From the NCBI GenBank assembly GCA_040767965.1, contig JAXGNR010000006.1, positions 64,001 to 128,000 of the forward strand: a DNA stretch of 64,000 nucleotides, given 5' to 3'. The translations under genes and the position numbers were made by a program. This document shows, one piece after another, positions 14,358 through 21,869 of the stretch. Numbering within the stretch: position 1 is the first letter of the stretch; each line of letters opens with the position of its first letter. The DNA is from Atribacterota bacterium. Lineage in GTDB: Bacteria; Atribacterota; Phoenicimicrobiia; Phoenicimicrobiales; Stramentimicrobiaceae. Under the pieces are notes generated by a model. It ran no database searches. It was given only the letters and a program-made list of their open reading frames with translations, and was not told where the DNA came from.

Positions 14358-15287
14358 ATAATACAATTCTTACAAAACAACTTTCCCATGCAACAGATAC
14401 CGAAGATATCTTTAGCAGATCTGATATTGCTCACATCTTTATTCATCATCATAAAGTAATCCAATCTCATTTATTACCTGGATTAAAAGTTGATGTTAAA
14501 GAACTTGGAGACCATATAGAAATAAAAACCATTGTAGAAAAAAATGTACAAATTGAAAAACCAGTCCATATGTGCTTTGGTATGATTCCGGAAAATGGAA
14601 TCCAAAAAATGGTAATAAATACAGAAATACAGGAAAACGCTTCAGCCTCCTTCCTTGCACATTGCGCTTTCCCAAATGCAGTTGACATTCAACATATCAT
14701 GGATGGCAATATCAGAATAGGCAAAAATGCCTCTTTTAAATATCTGGAAAAACATACTCACGGACTCCATGGAGGAGTGAAGGTTTACCCTCATGCTACT
14801 ATTTTTCTTGATTATAATGCCCATTATTATTCCGAGTTTGAATTACTTAAAGGAGCGGGCAGGTGTTATTGATATTAATTACGAAGCAACATGTGAAGCA
14901 GGAAGTGTCTTAGAAATGATATCAAGAATTAGCGGTAAAGAAAACGATCTTATAAATATTAAAGAAATTGGCCACCTGATTGGTGAAAAAGCTCGTGGAT
15001 TGCTAATTTCAAAAGTAGCAGCCACCGGAAATACAAAGGTAGAAGTTTATAATAAACTAACAGCTTCTGCTGCTTATGCCAGAGGACATGTAGACTGCAC
15101 GGAAATAATTAAAGATAATGGTATAGTTAGTGCAATCCCTGTTGTTGAGGTAAGCCATCCAAAAGCACATATAACACATGAAGCAGCTTTGGGCAGTGTT
15201 GATTCCAAACAATTACAAACCTTAATGGCAAGAGGTTTAGATGAAAATATGGCTACTGATCTGATTATTCAAGGTTTATTAAGTTAA
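14354..15287 (+). pseudogene. SufB/SufD-family (SmsB-like) scaffold, frameshifted
   Basis: PVHMCFG, AHCAFPNA, ARGHVDCTEI, HEAALGSVD...LMARGL. One extra base near 14855 splits it into two ORFs. Confidence 0.85.
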
Positions 15288-15327
15288 CTTTATTAAATAG
15301 ATTGTATTTTCGTTAGGAGTGTTTTAA

Positions 15328-15882
15328 ATGAAAAATAAGAATACATTCCTGGGAATAGCATTAATAATCATTGGAATTGCCTGGACTTTGTCTAATTTAT
15401 ATATTATTAATGGACATTGGGTACTCCCTTTTATTGGTATTATACTCCTCATAATTTATCAATATCGAGGAGGAACACAACAAAAAGAGACAATAGGGTT
15501 TTTGATTGCCGGATGTATCATATTTATGATAGGTATTTTCGCAGCTATCAATGATCTTTTTTACCTGGGATTCCTGGAAGGTCCCCTCTTCTTCTTTTTT
15601 CTTGGAGCTGCTTTCTTACCGGTTTATGCCTTGCACACTCGTCATTTTCCCCAAAAAGAATCAGGAAAACATAATTGGCCTATTTATACCGGATTTATTC
15701 TAATAGCTTTTGGCTTGTTTATTCTTCTAGTTGAAACATTTAAAATACCGGAAGTACAAAATTTATCGCTACTCTGGCCTGTAGTCTTGATTCTGCTGGG
15801 TTTATATATTATATTTGGAAAAGTAAAGAAAAATAAAATTTGTTATTATTGTTGTCATAATCTAAACCACTACTTTGAATAA
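15328..15882 (+). CDS. Membrane protein, LiaF/DUF5668-like
   Basis: Several TM helices; 'GIALIIIG' and 'LWPVVLILLG'; adjacent to a PspC gene. Confidence 0.55.
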   Translation: MKNKNTFLGIALIIIGIAWTLSNLYIINGHWVLPFIGIILLIIYQYRGGTQQKETIGFLIAGCIIFMIGIFAAINDLFYLGFLEGPLFFFFLGAAFLPVYALHTRHFPQKESGKHNWPIYTGFILIAFGLFILLVETFKIPEVQNLSLLWPVVLILLGLYIIFGKVKKNKICYYCCHNLNHYFE

Positions 15883-15923
15883 ATAAATTTAATAATATAA
15901 GTTTGTAATTAGAGGGTAATAAG

Positions 15924-16184
15924 ATGAAAAAAATCTATAGGTCAAGAAAAGACAGTAAAATTGCTGGAGTATGTGGTGGGATCGCTGAATATTTTAAAGT
16001 TGACCCCACCATCATAAGGCTTTTAGCTGTACTGACAGTTTTCTTTGGAGGCGGAGGAATCGTTGCCTATATAATTGCCTGGATTATCATTCCCCTGGAG
16101 CCTTTAGAAGAAAACACTTCTAGTTTTAAAAAAACTGAAAACACAGTTGATGCTGAAATTATTGATGATGAAGAACAAAAATAA
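15924..16184 (+). CDS. PspC domain protein
   Basis: [28 protein letters not shown]...YIIAWIIIP. Confidence 0.9.
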
Positions 16185-16186
16185 AC

Positions 16187-17387
16187 TTATTTATTTTTGT
16201 CTAGAACATATTGGGCCAATACTGCAATACCATACGGTAAGGCATCATCATCAAAATTAAATCTATTGCTATGACCAGGCATCACTTTATTTCCAGGAGC
16301 GGTAACACCCAGTCTCAACATAGCTGATTTAGAAACTTTTTCCATAAAGAAAGAAAAATCTTCTGAGCCCATTCTGGGAGTTGGCAATTCAACTATATAG
16401 CCCTCTCCTAAAGCTTTGTTAGCTGCATCAGTTAACTCTTTTATCGTATCAGGATGGTTTACGGTACTGGGAACACCGAAGATATAATCAAATTCATAAT
16501 TACACCCAAAAGCTTTAGAAATATTTTTAATGATTTTTTCCATTTTTGCTCCTACTTCTTCTCTCACTTTGGGATTATGACATCTTACAGTACCTTGTAA
16601 GAGTTATTTCTTCTGGAATAATATTAAAAGCAGTTCCTCCATGTATAGTACACACAGAGATTACTATACTATCAAAAGCATTTATCTGTCTGCTAACTAT
16701 TCCCTGTAAAGCAACTACTAACTGTGAGGCAGTTAAAACAACATCATTTGTTTGATGAGGTAGTGCACCATGACCTCCATTTCCGGTGATTTTAATATTG
16801 AATTTATCTCCAGAAGCATGAAATGTACCAATCCAGGTGCCTATTTTCCCTGTGTCCAAATAAGGATCTGCATGCAAAGAAACTATATTATCCACTTCCG
16901 GATTTTCTAACACTCCTGCTTCTACCATTACTTTTGCTCCAGTTAGTATTTCCTCAGCTGGTTGAAATACAAACTTTACAATACCAGAAAACTGATCCTT
17001 CATTGAACTTAACAGCTTGGCTATTCCCAACAATATGGCAGTATGTCCATCATGGCCACATGCATGCATAACACCTTTGTGAACAGATTTATAAGGAATG
17101 TCATTTATTTCCTCTATCGGGAGTGCATCTATATCTGCTCTAATTGCTGTTACCACAGGAGAACCTTTTTTATTTCCTTTTAGAACTCCTAAAACGCCAG
17201 TCTCCATATCAATAGGGACAATTTCTACTCCAAAACTTTCCAGTTCTTTTTTTATAAGTTCAGCAGTTTTATATTCTTTCATTCCAAGTTCTGGATGCTG
17301 ATGAAGTTCTCTGCGTATTTTTGTCGAATAATCCTTTAATTCTATTGCTTTTTGAAAAATATCATTTCCCAATTGAAACTCCTCCAA
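16187..17387 (-). pseudogene. M20D amidohydrolase with a single frameshift
   Basis: HQHPELG, RADIDALP, MHACGHDGH, FQPAEE, GGHG, SEDFS. An extra base near 16596 breaks 'LTGTVR'. Confidence 0.88.
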
Positions 17388-17508
17388 TCTTTTTTATAAA
17401 TATTTTTTATTAAATAATATATTTTTTTATTATAGCTTAATTTAGTTATTATTAAAAGAATATCTTCTTTTTATGGTTTATATGCTTTTTAAAAAAATAT
17501 ATTCCCCT

Positions 17509-19215
17509 GTTAGTGTAAAATTTACTGGGGTACTTAAAGATACTTTAAACTTGCTTACTAACATAAAAAGGTGTAGACTTACCTAAATACCCATCAAGAA
17601 GTATCCTTTAAATAAAGGAGGTAAGACTACACCTATGGATATTGATATGATAACCATAACTTTTCCCCAAGTCCGAGTAGAAATTCCAATAAAGGATCTC
17701 ACCTTTGACACTCTAGAAGACATGATCTTTGACATGATGCAAAAATTGCCCAGATGGTCTTTACCAAAGTGCTCTCTGATATTGATGACTACCTGCGCAA
17801 GAACAGAAGACGTGGAAAACTGAAAAATACCGGTAAAAGAAGCAAAACCTTCTTAACCCGTTTTGGTGATGTCTCCTTTTTCCCGCACCCGTTACCTTGA
17901 GAAGACCGGTAAAGCCCAATACCTGTTGGATGAGGCTCTTTCTACCATCAAAAACCAGCGGATCAGCCTTTCCCGTGCCATGACCGAGTGTTTACTTGCC
18001 AGCTTATCTTCCTACCCGCGGGAAGTGGTAGGCCAAACCAAGCTTTACTGGGTCATACCCGCAGCCATGAGTCTATACGCAAAAACGTACTATACAGGCT
18101 AGGCTGATCATCGAACATGAAAAAAGAGACTACAGCAGCTGGAGGAATCTGGATATTTCCGCAAAAGAAGCACCGGATGTTGTCTATACCGAAGCTGATG
18201 CCACCTATCTCAAACTACAGAAACCGGAAAAAGACAAAAAGCTGGAAGTCAAAATCGGGATCGGTTATTGTGGTAAGGAAAAATCGTTATTCCAGCGGTA
18301 ATTCCCAAAGACTGAAAGAAAAGTTCCTCTACCTGGGTACCGGCAAGAATTTTATGTATAACTTTAGCCTAAGAGCAGAAGAACTAAACATCTCCCAATC
18401 TAAAAAGCAGTACTTCAGGGCAGACGGAGACAAGTGGATCACCTCGGAATCCGTGACTACTTCCCTTCTGCCACTTATCTGCTTTGCCGTTTTCACCTGA
18501 ACAAACGCCTCGAGAGCTCTTCCGGGCAATAAGACCCAGCAGAAGCTGATCAAGAAGCTTACTTTTATCCGAGCCGGATTGATGAAGCCCTAGCCAGGAT
18601 TGACAATCTCTTGGTAGTCTCTTCTGAGCCAAAACAGAAAAAGCTTTTGGCAGACTTTACTCCTATATAGCGAACAACCGCCAGGGGATCAATCAGGCAA
18701 CTCTAAAGGACAAGGACATCGCCAAAACAGGAGCGATTGAGTCAATGTCAAACTGGCCATTGCTAACCGCTTTAAAAAGCGGGGCAGAAGCTGGAGCAAA
18801 AAGGAGCATTCTCTTTACTGAAGGTAAAAAAACCATTCAATGGCAAGTGGGGATTCCTGGTGGGGCAAAGAACCATCCTATCAAGATAACACCACTTAAA
18901 CCACCCTTATCAGCATCTTCTTTTACCAAAGAAGTTTCTTCTTCCCAGTAATCCAGGCTAAGATCCCGGCCTTGGATGGACCGAATCGGGATAAACCCTG
19001 GGTAGGTGTTTAAAGTAATACCAATTAGAGCTTGTGTAATTAAATGAAAAAATTTAAAAAAGCATATTTCGTATTTATGACTGTAAATTAAATAAAAGAA
19101 GGGTATTTGATGTGTATTAAAACTAATATAGTCTTTTCAAATCTGTAGGTAGCTCTGCCTTAAACCATAAACATTTTGGCAGTGGAAAAAGTACCTACAA
19201 GAATTTGACACAGAC
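17509..19215 (+). mobile_element. ISLre2-family-like IS with decayed transposase
   Basis: Imperfect IRs GTTAGTGTAAAATT and AATTTGACACAGAC. 9-bp target duplication TATTCCCCT at 17500-17508 and 19216-19224. Higher GC. Transposase fragments TRFGDV..RTRY, YTEADA, ADGDKWI, CRFHLNKR, GAIES, RFKKRGRSWS, with many frameshifts. Confidence 0.85.
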
Positions 19216-19231
19216 TATTCCCCTGAAAGAC

Positions 19232-19259
19232 TTGACATTATAATTAACAATGTTATAAT
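19232..19259 (+). promoter_or_regulatory. Consensus sigma70/sigmaA promoter
   Basis: TTGACA (19232-37), 16-bp spacer, TG-n-TATAAT (19254-59). Confidence 0.75.
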
Positions 19260-19264
19260 ACTAT

Positions 19265-19354
19265 CTGGTTTGATGAAAATAAACCATTAAATATTCTTTT
19301 CATTTTTATACCTCCTTTCAAACCCGCTTTGTTTTAAAACAAAGCGGGTTTTTT
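19265..19354 (+). ncRNA. Candidate ~90-nt sRNA with anti-Shine-Dalgarno motif
   Basis: Lies between a consensus promoter and an intrinsic terminator. Has a 5' hairpin TGGTTT...AAACCA followed by TTTTCATTTTTATACCTCCTTT. No convincing + strand CDS. Confidence 0.55.
19320..19354 (+). terminator. Intrinsic terminator
   Basis: AAACCCGCTTTGTTTT/AAAACAAAGCGGGTTT palindrome followed by a T-run. Confidence 0.8.
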
Positions 19355-19478
19355 AATTTCAATTAAAATCAAACGTATCTATGGAAAGTTTTTCTTAAAT
19401 TGTTGGAAATAATTTGATGATAAAAAATAAAATTATTATATGAAGATATTTTATAGGATATTCTAAAGAAAATTATTT

Positions 19479-20432
19479 TTACTTTTTTCTTAAAATACTA
19501 TTTATCCAGTTAAGAATAACATCAAAAACAGGGTGATCCGTTTTACCCAGATCATAATCAATTGAAACATGATTCTCTTCAGAGAAATAATGGATATTTA
19601 CATTGTAATTATATTTATGTAGATTGTTATAAAAAGCCTTGTTGACATTTTTAGAAACTTCCCGATCGCCAGCTACCAATAAAAAAAATGAAGGCGGAGT
19701 TAGCCCTTCTTTGATGTAGTTTATAGGAGATGCGCTTTCCAAATCCTGTATTTTATCACCAAAAACCCATGAAAATAAAAACTGGTTTTCTGGCTCGGCT
19801 GCAAATAATGAAGGAAGATGATATGCTGCACTGTCCAGACCAATTACTCCAGCAATATCTGAGGGAATTAAATCAAATTCAGCAAGATATTTTTCATTTA
19901 AAGCAATTAAAGCGGCTAAATGCCCTCCCGCTGAATGTCCAAGAATAAATATCTGCTTTGGATTTCCACTATAATAATTGATATTTTTCTTAACCCAGTA
20001 AAATGCACGGGCAACATCAACAGCTTGGGCGGGAAATTGATTATCTGGAGAAAGTCTGTAGTTTATACTTACATAAATAAAATTATTGTCAGTAAAAGCC
20101 TTAGCCTTATGGCCTGGAATCCCTTTGTCACCCAATGCCCAGGATCCACCATGAACATAAATTACAACAGGGCAAGAGTGACAGTTTTCTGGTTGATACA
20201 AGTCTAATAAATGACTGCTATGCTGATATTTCTTGTGTTCTTCTTTATTATAAAATTCATCAAAATAGCTGATATCCTGATGAATTTTTATATTATTCCA
20301 TACTATTTCTTGAGAAAATACAGGTAATGTAAAAATAAAGAAAAACAATATGCAGAATATTTGCAAAAAAACAAATAATTTACCACAGGCAGAATTAGTT
20401 TCCACCTGTGGTAAAAAAATATTATTCTTCAT
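19479..20432 (-). CDS. Exported alpha/beta hydrolase (HSL-like carboxylesterase)
   Basis: LDLY, HGGSW..GDK, INYRLSP, GHSAGGHL; hydrophobic N-terminus. Confidence 0.85.
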   Translation of the reverse strand: MKNNIFLPQVETNSACGKLFVFLQIFCILFFFIFTLPVFSQEIVWNNIKIHQDISYFDEFYNKEEHKKYQHSSHLLDLYQPENCHSCPVVIYVHGGSWALGDKGIPGHKAKAFTDNNFIYVSINYRLSPDNQFPAQAVDVARAFYWVKKNINYYSGNPKQIFILGHSAGGHLAALIALNEKYLAEFDLIPSDIAGVIGLDSAAYHLPSLFAAEPENQFLFSWVFGDKIQDLESASPINYIKEGLTPPSFFLLVAGDREVSKNVNKAFYNNLHKYNYNVNIHYFSEENHVSIDYDLGKTDHPVFDVILNWINSILRKK

Positions 20433-20802
20433 ATTTCCATAATTTATGAATATTACAATATTCTCTAACCTTTTTTATCCCTTCAGCATCCTTAAATTCT
20501 GCTTCAGGAGGATCACCAGGTTTTAGGAATTTTTTACATGAACCCTTGTCGGTGATAACCTGTATCCACTCTATATAATGTTTTTCTTCCATTGGATGCA
20601 AGGTGGAACCTACAGTCACTTTAATACCTTTTTCTGTTTTTTGAACTACAGGAACATGCTTTTCAGTAGCCTGTTCAGCAGTTTGTTCTTTCATTAATTC
20701 CATGGGCTCACCACAACAAACCAGTTCACCCTTGCCACCGTGTAAAACTTCTATAATGTTTCCACAAATATCGCATTTATAAATTTCATATTTTTCAGCC
20801 AT
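20422..20802 (-). CDS. dfx: Desulfoferrodoxin (2Fe superoxide reductase)
   Basis: YKCDICGN...CCG, EKHVP, HPM, HYIEWI, YCNIH. Start moved to ATG 20802 after the GGAG RBS. Confidence 0.93.
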   Translation of the reverse strand: MAEKYEIYKCDICGNIIEVLHGGKGELVCCGEPMELMKEQTAEQATEKHVPVVQKTEKGIKVTVGSTLHPMEEKHYIEWIQVITDKGSCKKFLKPGDPPEAEFKDAEGIKKVREYCNIHKLWKYEE

Positions 20803-20877
20803 TTCCCTACTCTCCTTTTGATTTTTTCTACAGAACAATAAGTCAGAATATTTAAAATCTCGCTTAGCATATTTTTT

Positions 20878-21375
20878 TTAATGTATATCGTATATAGTTT
20901 CCATATCTTCAAATAAAGCTTCCAGATCATCTTCATGCTCTACTTCATCTTTTAAAATTTCCAAAACTATTTGGTAAGTTATAGGATCTTTGTCTTTAAG
21001 ATGTTCTGATAGCTTTTGATATACATCTATTGCACATTGTTCACCTTTAATATTCTGTTCTAATAAAGTTTTCACATTTGGGTCACTGGGTGCTTCATAT
21101 CCGCAATTAGTAACTTTATACCATTCCTCAGGGCTCAGAACAGGAGTTCCGCCTAATTGCAAAATTCTTTCTGCCAGCATATCAGCATGTCTTAATTCAT
21201 CATTAGCATGTTCTATTAACTCAGCCACTACTGCACCTCTCATAGTACCTTTTGCAACTTTGGCACCTAACCAGTATTGATAATAAGCAAGCCATTCATC
21301 AGCTAGAGCTTTGTTGAGCTCTTTAACCAACTCGTTGACATCCATTCCTACTAATTTTTTTCCTTTTGTACCCAT
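20878..21375 (-). CDS. Ferritin-like DPSL / bacterioferritin-related protein
   Basis: ALADEWLAYYQYW, E..H, EQCAI, DEVEHE diiron pattern. Confidence 0.88.
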   Translation of the reverse strand: MGTKGKKLVGMDVNELVKELNKALADEWLAYYQYWLGAKVAKGTMRGAVVAELIEHANDELRHADMLAERILQLGGTPVLSPEEWYKVTNCGYEAPSDPNVKTLLEQNIKGEQCAIDVYQKLSEHLKDKDPITYQIVLEILKDEVEHEDDLEALFEDMETIYDIH

Positions 21376-21416
21376 TTTAATCCTCCTTTTTTTTAAATAA
21401 ATTAAAAATGTTATTT

Positions 21417-21869
21417 TTAATTGTCTTTATTTTTTTCTTTCTCTAAACATTCCAGGCATACACCCTCTAAGATAATTTTCTTCCTTAAAACATGAAACTT
21501 ATCGCTTATATCTTCAGGTATATTAATATTATCATATTCTATGCATTCAAAATCAATTATTTTCTTACATTTCAGGCAGCGGAAATGATAGTGCTGTTTT
21601 AAATTAGCGTCAAAATGCCTGGCACCATGACCGCCTTCTACTATTTTAATCAATCCCTTTTCCAATAAAGATAAAAGTGTTCTATTTACGGTGTCGAAAG
21701 ATATATTAGGAAACTCTTTTCTTACCCTTCTATAAATAATTTCAGCAGTCGGATGTGATTTTGAATCAACCAAACAACAAAAAACACTCAGACGCTGAGG
21801 GGTAATCCTAAAATTATTTTTTTCTAATTTTTCTTTACAATATAAAAAAGTATTTCTCATTTGAATCAT
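21417..21869 (-). CDS. perR: Fur-family regulator, PerR-like
   Basis: RITPQR, HPTAE, HYHFRCLKC, CLEC; heads an oxidative-stress operon. Confidence 0.8.
   Translation of the reverse strand: MIQMRNTFLYCKEKLEKNNFRITPQRLSVFCCLVDSKSHPTAEIIYRRVRKEFPNISFDTVNRTLLSLLEKGLIKIVEGGHGARHFDANLKQHYHFRCLKCKKIIDFECIEYDNINIPEDISDKFHVLRKKIILEGVCLECLEKEKNKDN

Follow-up and report, generated by a model that had tools for sequence, protein, structure and literature searches.

The stretch analysed here (hereafter the window) comprises 64,000 nucleotides (nt) of contig JAXGNR010000006.1 (assembly GCA_040767965.1, positions 64,001 to 128,000 of the forward strand) and belongs to a member of the Atribacterota, bacteria with very few cultured members that reach high abundance in marine sediments, oil reservoirs and anaerobic digesters. 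At positions 19232-19354 of the window, on the + strand, lies a 123-bp unit made up of a promoter, an RNA of about 90 nt and a terminator, present as a single copy in its genome and very probably a functional RNA gene. The original prediction for this locus had described the unit as unannotated. In an Rfam cmscan of positions 18800-19800, none of the 15 matches obtained at E values up to 10 reached its gathering score. The best of these matches were to PK-repBA (25.4, gathering score 45), Trp_leader (24.1, gathering score 41) and RybB (22.9, gathering score 40), and they were mostly driven by the terminator.

The promoter consists of the -35 hexamer TTGACA (19232-19237), a spacer of 16 nt (19238-19253) and the extended -10 element TGTTATAAT (19251-19259, with the TG at 19251-19252 and TATAAT at 19254-19259). 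It matches the consensus at 12 of 12 hexamer positions and carries the TG in addition, just as predicted, and it is the sole site of this quality among the eight promoter-like sites found between 18500 and 20000. Its statistics, collected from 28 distinct full-length copies of type A recovered from genomes and metagenomes, are equally uniform: TTGACA and the 16-nt spacer length were found in all 28 copies, while the extended -10 reads TGnTATAAT in 27 and TGnTACAAT in one. The spacer includes the TG of the extended -10 and most of a near-palindrome, ACATTATAATTAACAATGT (19235-19253). This near-palindrome, which had been noted as overlapping the promoter, is indeed present but is specific to the window, the spacer sequence not being conserved (pairwise identity 0.60, against 0.59 for a shuffled baseline).

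Promoter spacing would place the start of transcription near 19265-19267, at the foot of a tentative 5' hairpin (19266-19286) whose arms, TGGTTT (19266-19271) and AAACCA (19281-19286), enclose a variable loop. An unpaired, G-free core of 34 nt follows (19286-19319), including the tract UUUUCAUUUUUAUACCUCCUUU (19297-19318), the triplet CAT (19301-19303), which is an anti-AUG, and an anti-Shine-Dalgarno (anti-SD) sequence, ACCTCCTTTC (19310-19319). Read in order, the core offers the complement of AAA AGA AUA UUU AAU, then CAU, a 7-nt A/U spacer and the 10-nt anti-SD, an order and spacing that fit the complement of a start codon plus about five following codons (AUG AAA AGA AUA UUU AAU). Since the 16S rRNA of the source genome ends in …GGAUCACCUCCUUUCUA, and the 10-mer of the core, ACCUCCUUUC, is exactly this 3' tail, the core carries the organism's own 10-nt anti-SD.

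The unit closes with an intrinsic terminator (19320-19354), composed of a 14-bp stem with 6 G-C pairs and a 4-nt loop (19320-19351) and a T-run that extends to 19354; both this strong terminator and the tract preceding it had been recognised in the original prediction. For the RNA spanning 19265-19358 the folding energy is -25.6 kcal/mol, below all 200 dinucleotide shuffles (z = -5.75), and this low energy is mostly due to the terminator. The core, having no G, can neither pair with itself nor form an antiterminator.

Conservation and distribution of the unit

A BLAST search against 40 relatives gave matches in 20 of the 21 other genomes of the same family, most of them starting at query position 32, just 5' of the -35 hexamer, and ending at the terminator. 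Conservation among relatives, which the original prediction made a test of the unit, was thus found, and what is kept is the structure and the core and not the frame of the open reading frame (ORF) on the opposite strand. Over 12 loci (66 pairs), mean pairwise identity was 0.87 for the unit, 0.65 and 0.62 for the two 60-nt flanks and 0.59 for the shuffled baseline. When the flanks were included in the alignment, the -35 hexamer, the extended -10 and the core were invariant, and the spacer, the hairpin loop (which carries indels), the terminator loop and both flanks were variable, the pattern expected for a transcription unit on the + strand. Within the core all 34 columns are at least 90% conserved, and 32 are invariant, in 18 copies.

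To this is added covariation in the paired regions. Default MAFFT misplaced the 5' stem between variants with short and long loops, and the covariation therefore rests on a model-guided alignment of 22 copies, in which 96.8% of the pair cells are standard pairs. Two-sided changes occur at seven pairs, six in the terminator and one in the 5' hairpin, a level of covariation reached by none of 500 shuffles. In the terminator 97.4% of the cells are paired and compensatory double changes affect 6 of the 14 pairs; RNAalifold, applied to the same alignment, recovers the terminator only (13 pairs, five with double changes). The small hairpin of the original prediction fared less evenly. Its six pairs are conserved (95.3% of cells paired), with one GC-to-UA compensatory pair in the sister family, but its loop is variable and RNAalifold does not predict it, which is why we treat the 5' hairpin as tentative.

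The distribution of the RNA was assessed at three levels. An exact-match scan with a degenerate pattern of core plus terminator, over one genome per species and approximately 185,000 species, returned 19 stretches, of which 15 lie in records titled Atribacteria, Atribacterota or Caldatribacteriota, three in Candidatus genera and one in a record titled 'candidate division TA06'. Two of the three Candidatus genera are placed in the Atribacterota, class Ca. Phoenicimicrobiia, order Ca. Pheonicimicrobiales. A covariance model (R2), based on 22 copies, was then run with stricter filters over 86 genomes of the phylum, and it found the RNA in 20 of the 21 other same-family genomes and in 23 of 30 genomes of a sister family, the two families belonging to one order. 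With the same filters it was not found in the 34 searched genomes of five other Atribacterota families, four of these genomes being single-contig assemblies. Some sister-family genomes hold several copies, up to five model matches; the genomes G024 and G040 have five and four matches, respectively, of the sister variant. In one subgroup of this variant the 5' part is rich in C, and no promoter is evident within 100 nt.

The metagenome scan was anchored on the anti-SD and the terminator arm only, leaving the rest of the core free, and yielded 81 stretches, 80 of which could be parsed and 72 of which were distinct. Among the type-A copies 19 of 22 are identical over the 26 nt upstream of ACCTCC, and the sister variant (…AACAAAACAATCTTTTTCATAATTAT) is identical in 36 copies; four loci were chance hits without the core. 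A search of sequencing runs for the sequence listed no RNA run that contains it. We also searched, at 80% likeness, three metatranscriptome contig sets from the same study as a DNA data set that contains the sequence. Two had no match, and the third contained one 356-nt contig of a relative's copy, running from the core upstream through the promoter, which is uninformative as to strand, ends or transcription.

No regulatory RNA has been reported for the Atribacterota in the titles or abstracts found by our literature search. An order-wide and sharply bounded small RNA (sRNA) family, together with the siblings described below, can be used in RNA family databases and in the annotation of metagenome-assembled genomes.

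Neighbours, siblings and the antisense reading frame

In all 14 same-family loci that reach past the terminator, the unit is followed on the same strand by a gene for a Mur-ligase-type protein and then by one for a small membrane protein, which, by their motifs, we take to be PgsB/CapB and PgsC-like; Pfam reports only Mur_ligase_M on the former, whose name also leans on the PgsC-like neighbour. The pgsB-like gene starts approximately 75-150 nt past the terminator. Upstream, in 11 of the 13 same-family loci with sequence on that side, lies a same-strand gene of about 100 amino acids (aa) that is presumably PspC-like, again judging by motifs. It ends 20-30 nt before the -35 hexamer, with no hairpin in between, so that pspC transcripts probably end at the terminator of the sRNA.

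This arrangement raises the question of whether the RNA is a 5' leader or attenuator of the gene behind it (pgsB in most relatives), with a factor that binds the core deciding between termination and read-through. The constant same-strand gene in the 14 loci would fit such a role, several sister-family copies likewise precede a same-strand gene, and two of the Rfam matches, weak and below gathering score, are to leader-type families (the Trp_leader match mentioned above and PyrR, at 22.8 bits). We nevertheless regard a leader as highly improbable. The unit is intact in the source genome even though pgsB is located there on the opposite strand at a distance of 105 kb, and the gene contexts of the sister-family copies differ again. 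Moreover, with no G the core cannot pair with the terminator arm to give an antiterminator, and it shows no complementarity to the initiation region of pgsB (mean -7.1). The interval that separates the terminator from pgsB also contains a conserved + strand promoter-like element (TTTACA … TATAGCAT; in its fuller form, at loci L009-L025, CTATTTACAAT … TTC(T/C)TATAGCATTA), and pgsB therefore has its own start. The traits of an attenuator or riboswitch leader are accordingly lacking here: position is not fixed, there is no alternative antiterminator and no Rfam family reaches its gathering score. An intact unit amid rearranged flanks, together with the differing sister-family contexts, argues for an independent gene.

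The weaker matches of the covariance model proved to be units of the same plan with a different sequence, one in the source genome and others in relatives. These siblings read TTGACA-17-TGnTA(T/A)AAT, a variable 5' part that often has a CA-rich linker, CUUUUUCAU-N7-8-ACCUCCU and a terminator. The sibling at G000:C12:50528-50632 (minus strand) is made up of TTGACA-17-TGTTAAAAT, a 5' hairpin, the linker CAACCAACCAACAAAUAAC, UUUUUCAUUUUUAGACCUCCUAAC and a strong terminator. About 70 nt before the terminator of this C12 sibling are identical in three genera, and the terminator stems differ by compensatory changes. The siblings differ from one another in the part complementary to codons 2 onward, which suggests target specificity. 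A possible further unit was seen at G000:C13 near 21904 (minus strand), with CAUCAUUAAAAACCUCC, a hairpin and a T-run, and with TTGACT … TATAAA upstream.

Opposite the core, the minus strand carries the features that the original prediction had listed, the arrangement AAAGGAGGT-ATAAAA-ATG and an ORF of 16 codons, MKRIFNGLFSSNQIVL (19303-19253); its Shine-Dalgarno (SD) sequence is perfect, with 7 nt between SD and ATG. From these features the original prediction had derived, as its second option, a type-I-like pair of a small peptide and an antisense RNA. In such a pair, resembling type-I toxin-antitoxin systems, the minus strand would encode a peptide beginning MKRIFNG and the + strand RNA would be its overlapping antisense repressor, as with Ibs/Sib. 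The likeness to those loci lies in a small RNA that fully overlaps, in antisense, a very short ORF with an SD. The idea draws strength from the fact that nowhere in the genome except on its own opposite strand does the core have a perfect complement, that this strand has a perfect SD, a 7-nt spacing and an ATG, with an ORF open in all 28 copies, and that the antisense ORF of the C12 sibling encodes a 22-aa hydrophobic peptide.

What evolution has kept at this locus, however, does not look like a protein. The distance from the -10 to the CAT varies between 38 and 47 nt, which puts the ORF into the three possible frames in 17, 9 and 2 of the 28 copies, and its length varies between 8 and 32 aa. 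Only MKRIFNG is retained, at the nucleotide level, and the lack of any synonymous change in these seven codons points to a constraint on the RNA and not on the protein. The frequent peptide ending 'IL*' arises where the + strand -10 box is read as its reverse complement. Most of the peptides could not span a membrane because they are short or polar (their tails are polar or proline-containing), and in one sibling type the ORF stops after seven codons (MKKLFVG*), which speaks against peptides as the purpose of these loci. Nor is there a conserved minus-strand promoter: identity falls to 0.62 right after the T-tract, and no conserved sequence is found past the terminator, where a toxin promoter would sit. 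The pgsB-like and pspC-like neighbours are both on the + strand (in 14/14 and 11/13 loci), so no neighbour reads into the ORF, and the element in the gap between the terminator and pgsB is a + strand promoter-like sequence for pgsB. In contrast to Ibs/Sib, therefore, neither frame, length nor hydrophobicity of the ORF is conserved, and the locus shows no frame- and length-conserved membrane-spanning ORF and no conserved toxin promoter. We consider a toxin-antitoxin pair very unlikely and judge the antisense ORF to be not a gene but a side effect of the core being the mirror image of a translation-initiation region (TIR).

Candidate targets and mode of action

Anatomy and conservation best support the first option of the original prediction, an RNA acting in trans to mask ribosome-binding sites, and we hold this reading with moderate confidence. 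The unit has what is expected of a base-pairing sRNA, namely its own promoter and terminator and a conserved unstructured seed. As an independent gene for an RNA of about 90 nt, with a near-ideal promoter of the housekeeping type and its own intrinsic terminator, it would give rise to an RNA that pairs in trans with the SD, the AUG and the first codons of mRNAs. Such pairing would occupy the SD and the AUG and block binding of the 30S subunit, and decay by RNase E or RNase Y may come afterwards; RNase E/G and RNase Y are both present in the source genome.

We looked for the mRNAs involved by calculating duplex energies between the core and 5321 candidate TIRs (best -27.7, mean -11.8, standard deviation 4.0). 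The top 20 predicted targets are a mix of envelope and cytoplasmic proteins. Signal-peptide-like N-termini occur in 36 of the top 100 predicted targets, compared with 17.9% of 1859 ORFs (Fisher p = 6.6e-6), hinting weakly at a predicted bias towards genes with MK(K/R)-plus-hydrophobic starts, that is, exported or membrane proteins. We also asked how the complement of the core would perform as a TIR in the source genome. It ranked 121 of 1191, good but not extreme, and we therefore reject the idea that the core mirrors the consensus TIR; it looks like the mirror of a particular one.

Several results weigh against an RNA that masks specific initiation regions. There was no outlier among the 5321 duplex energies. 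An ungapped scan of both strands of the genome, allowing G-U pairs, returned the locus itself (39/39) and the C12 paralog (32/39), and all other matches were at most 30/39, so no mRNA of the source genome has extended complementarity to the core. The signal-peptide bias is partly generic, the difference being -0.28 to -1.19 with six cores whose 5' part was shuffled and -1.39 with the real one. Individual candidates failed as well. The DPSL gene start, which the original prediction had singled out as nearly complementary, pairs at -18.5 kcal/mol and ranks 312 of 5321. For an LptA/LptC-like target the pairing is not kept (-17.1 to -25.7 kcal/mol, with the start resolved in 7 of 12 orthologous loci); a 559-aa protein of genome G017 has a source-genome ortholog that reaches only -10.4; pspC ranks between 33 and 1239 of 5321; the true orthologs of a DctP-type binding protein give -23.9, -18.3 and -12.4; and the pgsB TIR fails by the mean energy given above. 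None of these six candidates is a conserved specific target. The invariance over 34 nt exceeds that of a typical seed, and the imperfect pairings found do not explain the length of the core. On the opposite strand, the perfect SD, the ATG and the open frame (8-32 codons) are kept in 28 of 28 copies, and a very short peptide may be translated from it. Finally, transcription, strand and ends of the RNA, like its base-pairing action and the identity of the mRNAs hit, we infer from sequence. A search of viral contigs with 24-nt target patterns of both variants gave 0 exact matches to a perfect target.

These results leave room for an RNA without specific targets, either one that, made in abundance, imitates the 16S 3' tail and competes with ribosomes for SD sequences in general, or a decoy (sponge) for a protein with affinity for U-rich single-stranded RNA, for example the RRM proteins or ribosomal protein S1. 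The exact 10-nt anti-SD copy, the perfect consensus promoter, a core whose invariance over 34 nt is longer than a usual seed and the failure of all six targets are compatible with this explanation. So is the inventory of RNA-binding proteins: Hfq (PF17209), ProQ (PF04352) and CsrA (PF02599) were not found in the source genome, which is 98% complete, with control genomes positive each time, and two small RRM-domain RNA-binding proteins are encoded (G000:C10:101784-102059 and G000:C4:769167-769463). On the other hand, the complement of the core is not an extreme TIR, so that the core seems to mirror a particular region instead of the consensus, and the divergence of the siblings opposite codons 2 onward suggests target specificity. 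An RNA without specific targets is the main rival reading, and we think it unlikely. The two RRM-domain proteins could possibly act as RNA chaperones, and their own genes are among the better predicted pairings of the core (-26.6 and -23.8).

A more speculative proposal, and in our view a quite improbable one, is that the RNA and its siblings, instead of being ordinary regulators of single genes, would be constitutive mimics of the two reading heads of the initiating ribosome, the exact anti-SD tail of the 16S rRNA and a CAU 'anticodon' spaced like SD and AUG, competing with the 30S subunit for the strongest initiation regions. This would explain both the invariance over 34 nt and the absence of a conserved single target. 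If it were true, these bacteria of the subsurface and of digesters, which grow very slowly, would possess a chaperone-independent, RNA-only throttle or store for mRNAs, perhaps mainly for those of exported proteins.

Returning to the masking of initiation regions, the closest parallel that we found is the experimentally studied family of cia-dependent small RNAs (csRNAs) of streptococci. By Marx et al. (2010, PMC3091779), csRNAs are described as having a 5' and a terminator stem-loop that flank an unpaired anti-SD/anti-AUG region, as being proposed to block translation initiation and as occurring as several siblings per genome at variable locations, with poorly conserved anti-TIR regions and a nonamer, [A/C]UCCUAAA[A/C], just past the first stem-loop. 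Set beside that description, the RNA of the window is of similar size and likewise has two stem-loops around an unpaired anti-TIR region, the 5' one being tentative here, and it too has siblings of the same design, several per genome and at variable locations. The differences are equally clear on the same basis. The promoter is a plain TTGACA/TGnTATAAT (with the -35 conserved in 28/28 copies), unlike the CiaR-controlled promoters described for csRNAs; CCUCCUUUC abuts the terminator and the nonamer is absent past the first stem-loop in type A; in the sibling types CCUCCUAA(A/C) adjoins the terminator, unlike the nonamer of csRNAs; and the core is invariant over 34 nt. The phylum is also a different one, and the 15 Rfam matches (E up to 10) include no csRNA family. 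Since membership among the csRNAs, as described there, fails on promoter type, nonamer position and model match, and since the lineages are unrelated, we view the RNA as an independent family of the same functional kind.

A second comparison is with the MicF-type sRNAs of enterobacteria, which are trans-encoded, have an unstructured region directed at the SD and the start codon and possess their own promoter and terminator. Their targets are mRNAs of envelope proteins, and they depend on Hfq. Here, in contrast, Hfq was not found and no cognate target with long complementarity was detected, and as neither Hfq nor ProQ was found in the source genome the RNA does not fall into the class of sRNAs dependent on these chaperones. 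An independent re-invention of the csRNA design without Hfq, ProQ and CsrA would offer a test case for chaperone-free RNAs directed at ribosome-binding sites, and the unusual length of the invariant core and its exact anti-SD copy would also be compatible with a broader function in the control of translation.

Flanks of the unit in the source genome

In the source genome both flanks of the unit are rearranged, and the 123 bp themselves are untouched. The genes downstream are all on the minus strand and code for an esterase, a desulfoferrodoxin, a ferritin-like protein and a Fur-family regulator. This run (19479-21869), in which the regulator is PerR-like and the esterase is of the BD-FAE/alpha-beta-hydrolase type, is an oxidative-stress cluster that converges on the terminator of the RNA. 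The original prediction had taken this convergence on perR as a sign of possible metal or redox regulation. The adjacency is peculiar to the source genome, however, which removes the basis for such a link, and no metal or redox operator was found.

On the other side, the pspC-like gene (15924-16169) is followed by a split M20 peptidase gene and then by a 1.7-kb repeat resembling an insertion sequence (IS; 17508-19216), which ends 16 nt upstream of the -35 hexamer and belongs to the context, not to the RNA gene. Sequences 91-96% identical to this repeat lie at five further sites in the genome (C7 twice, C10, C5 and, in part, C17), and the repeat is also present on the near-identical contig C25; its ORFs are fragmented and have no Pfam match. 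The M20/M25/M40 peptidase gene (16187-17387, minus strand) is divided into ORFs of 126 and 270 aa that adjoin each other but differ in frame, and it is either a frameshifted pseudogene or an assembly error. Contig G000:C25 (4958 nt) matches positions 15001-18429 of the window at 99% identity and probably represents the region with pspC, the peptidase gene and the IS-like repeat, either in a strain variant or as a duplicate made by the assembly.

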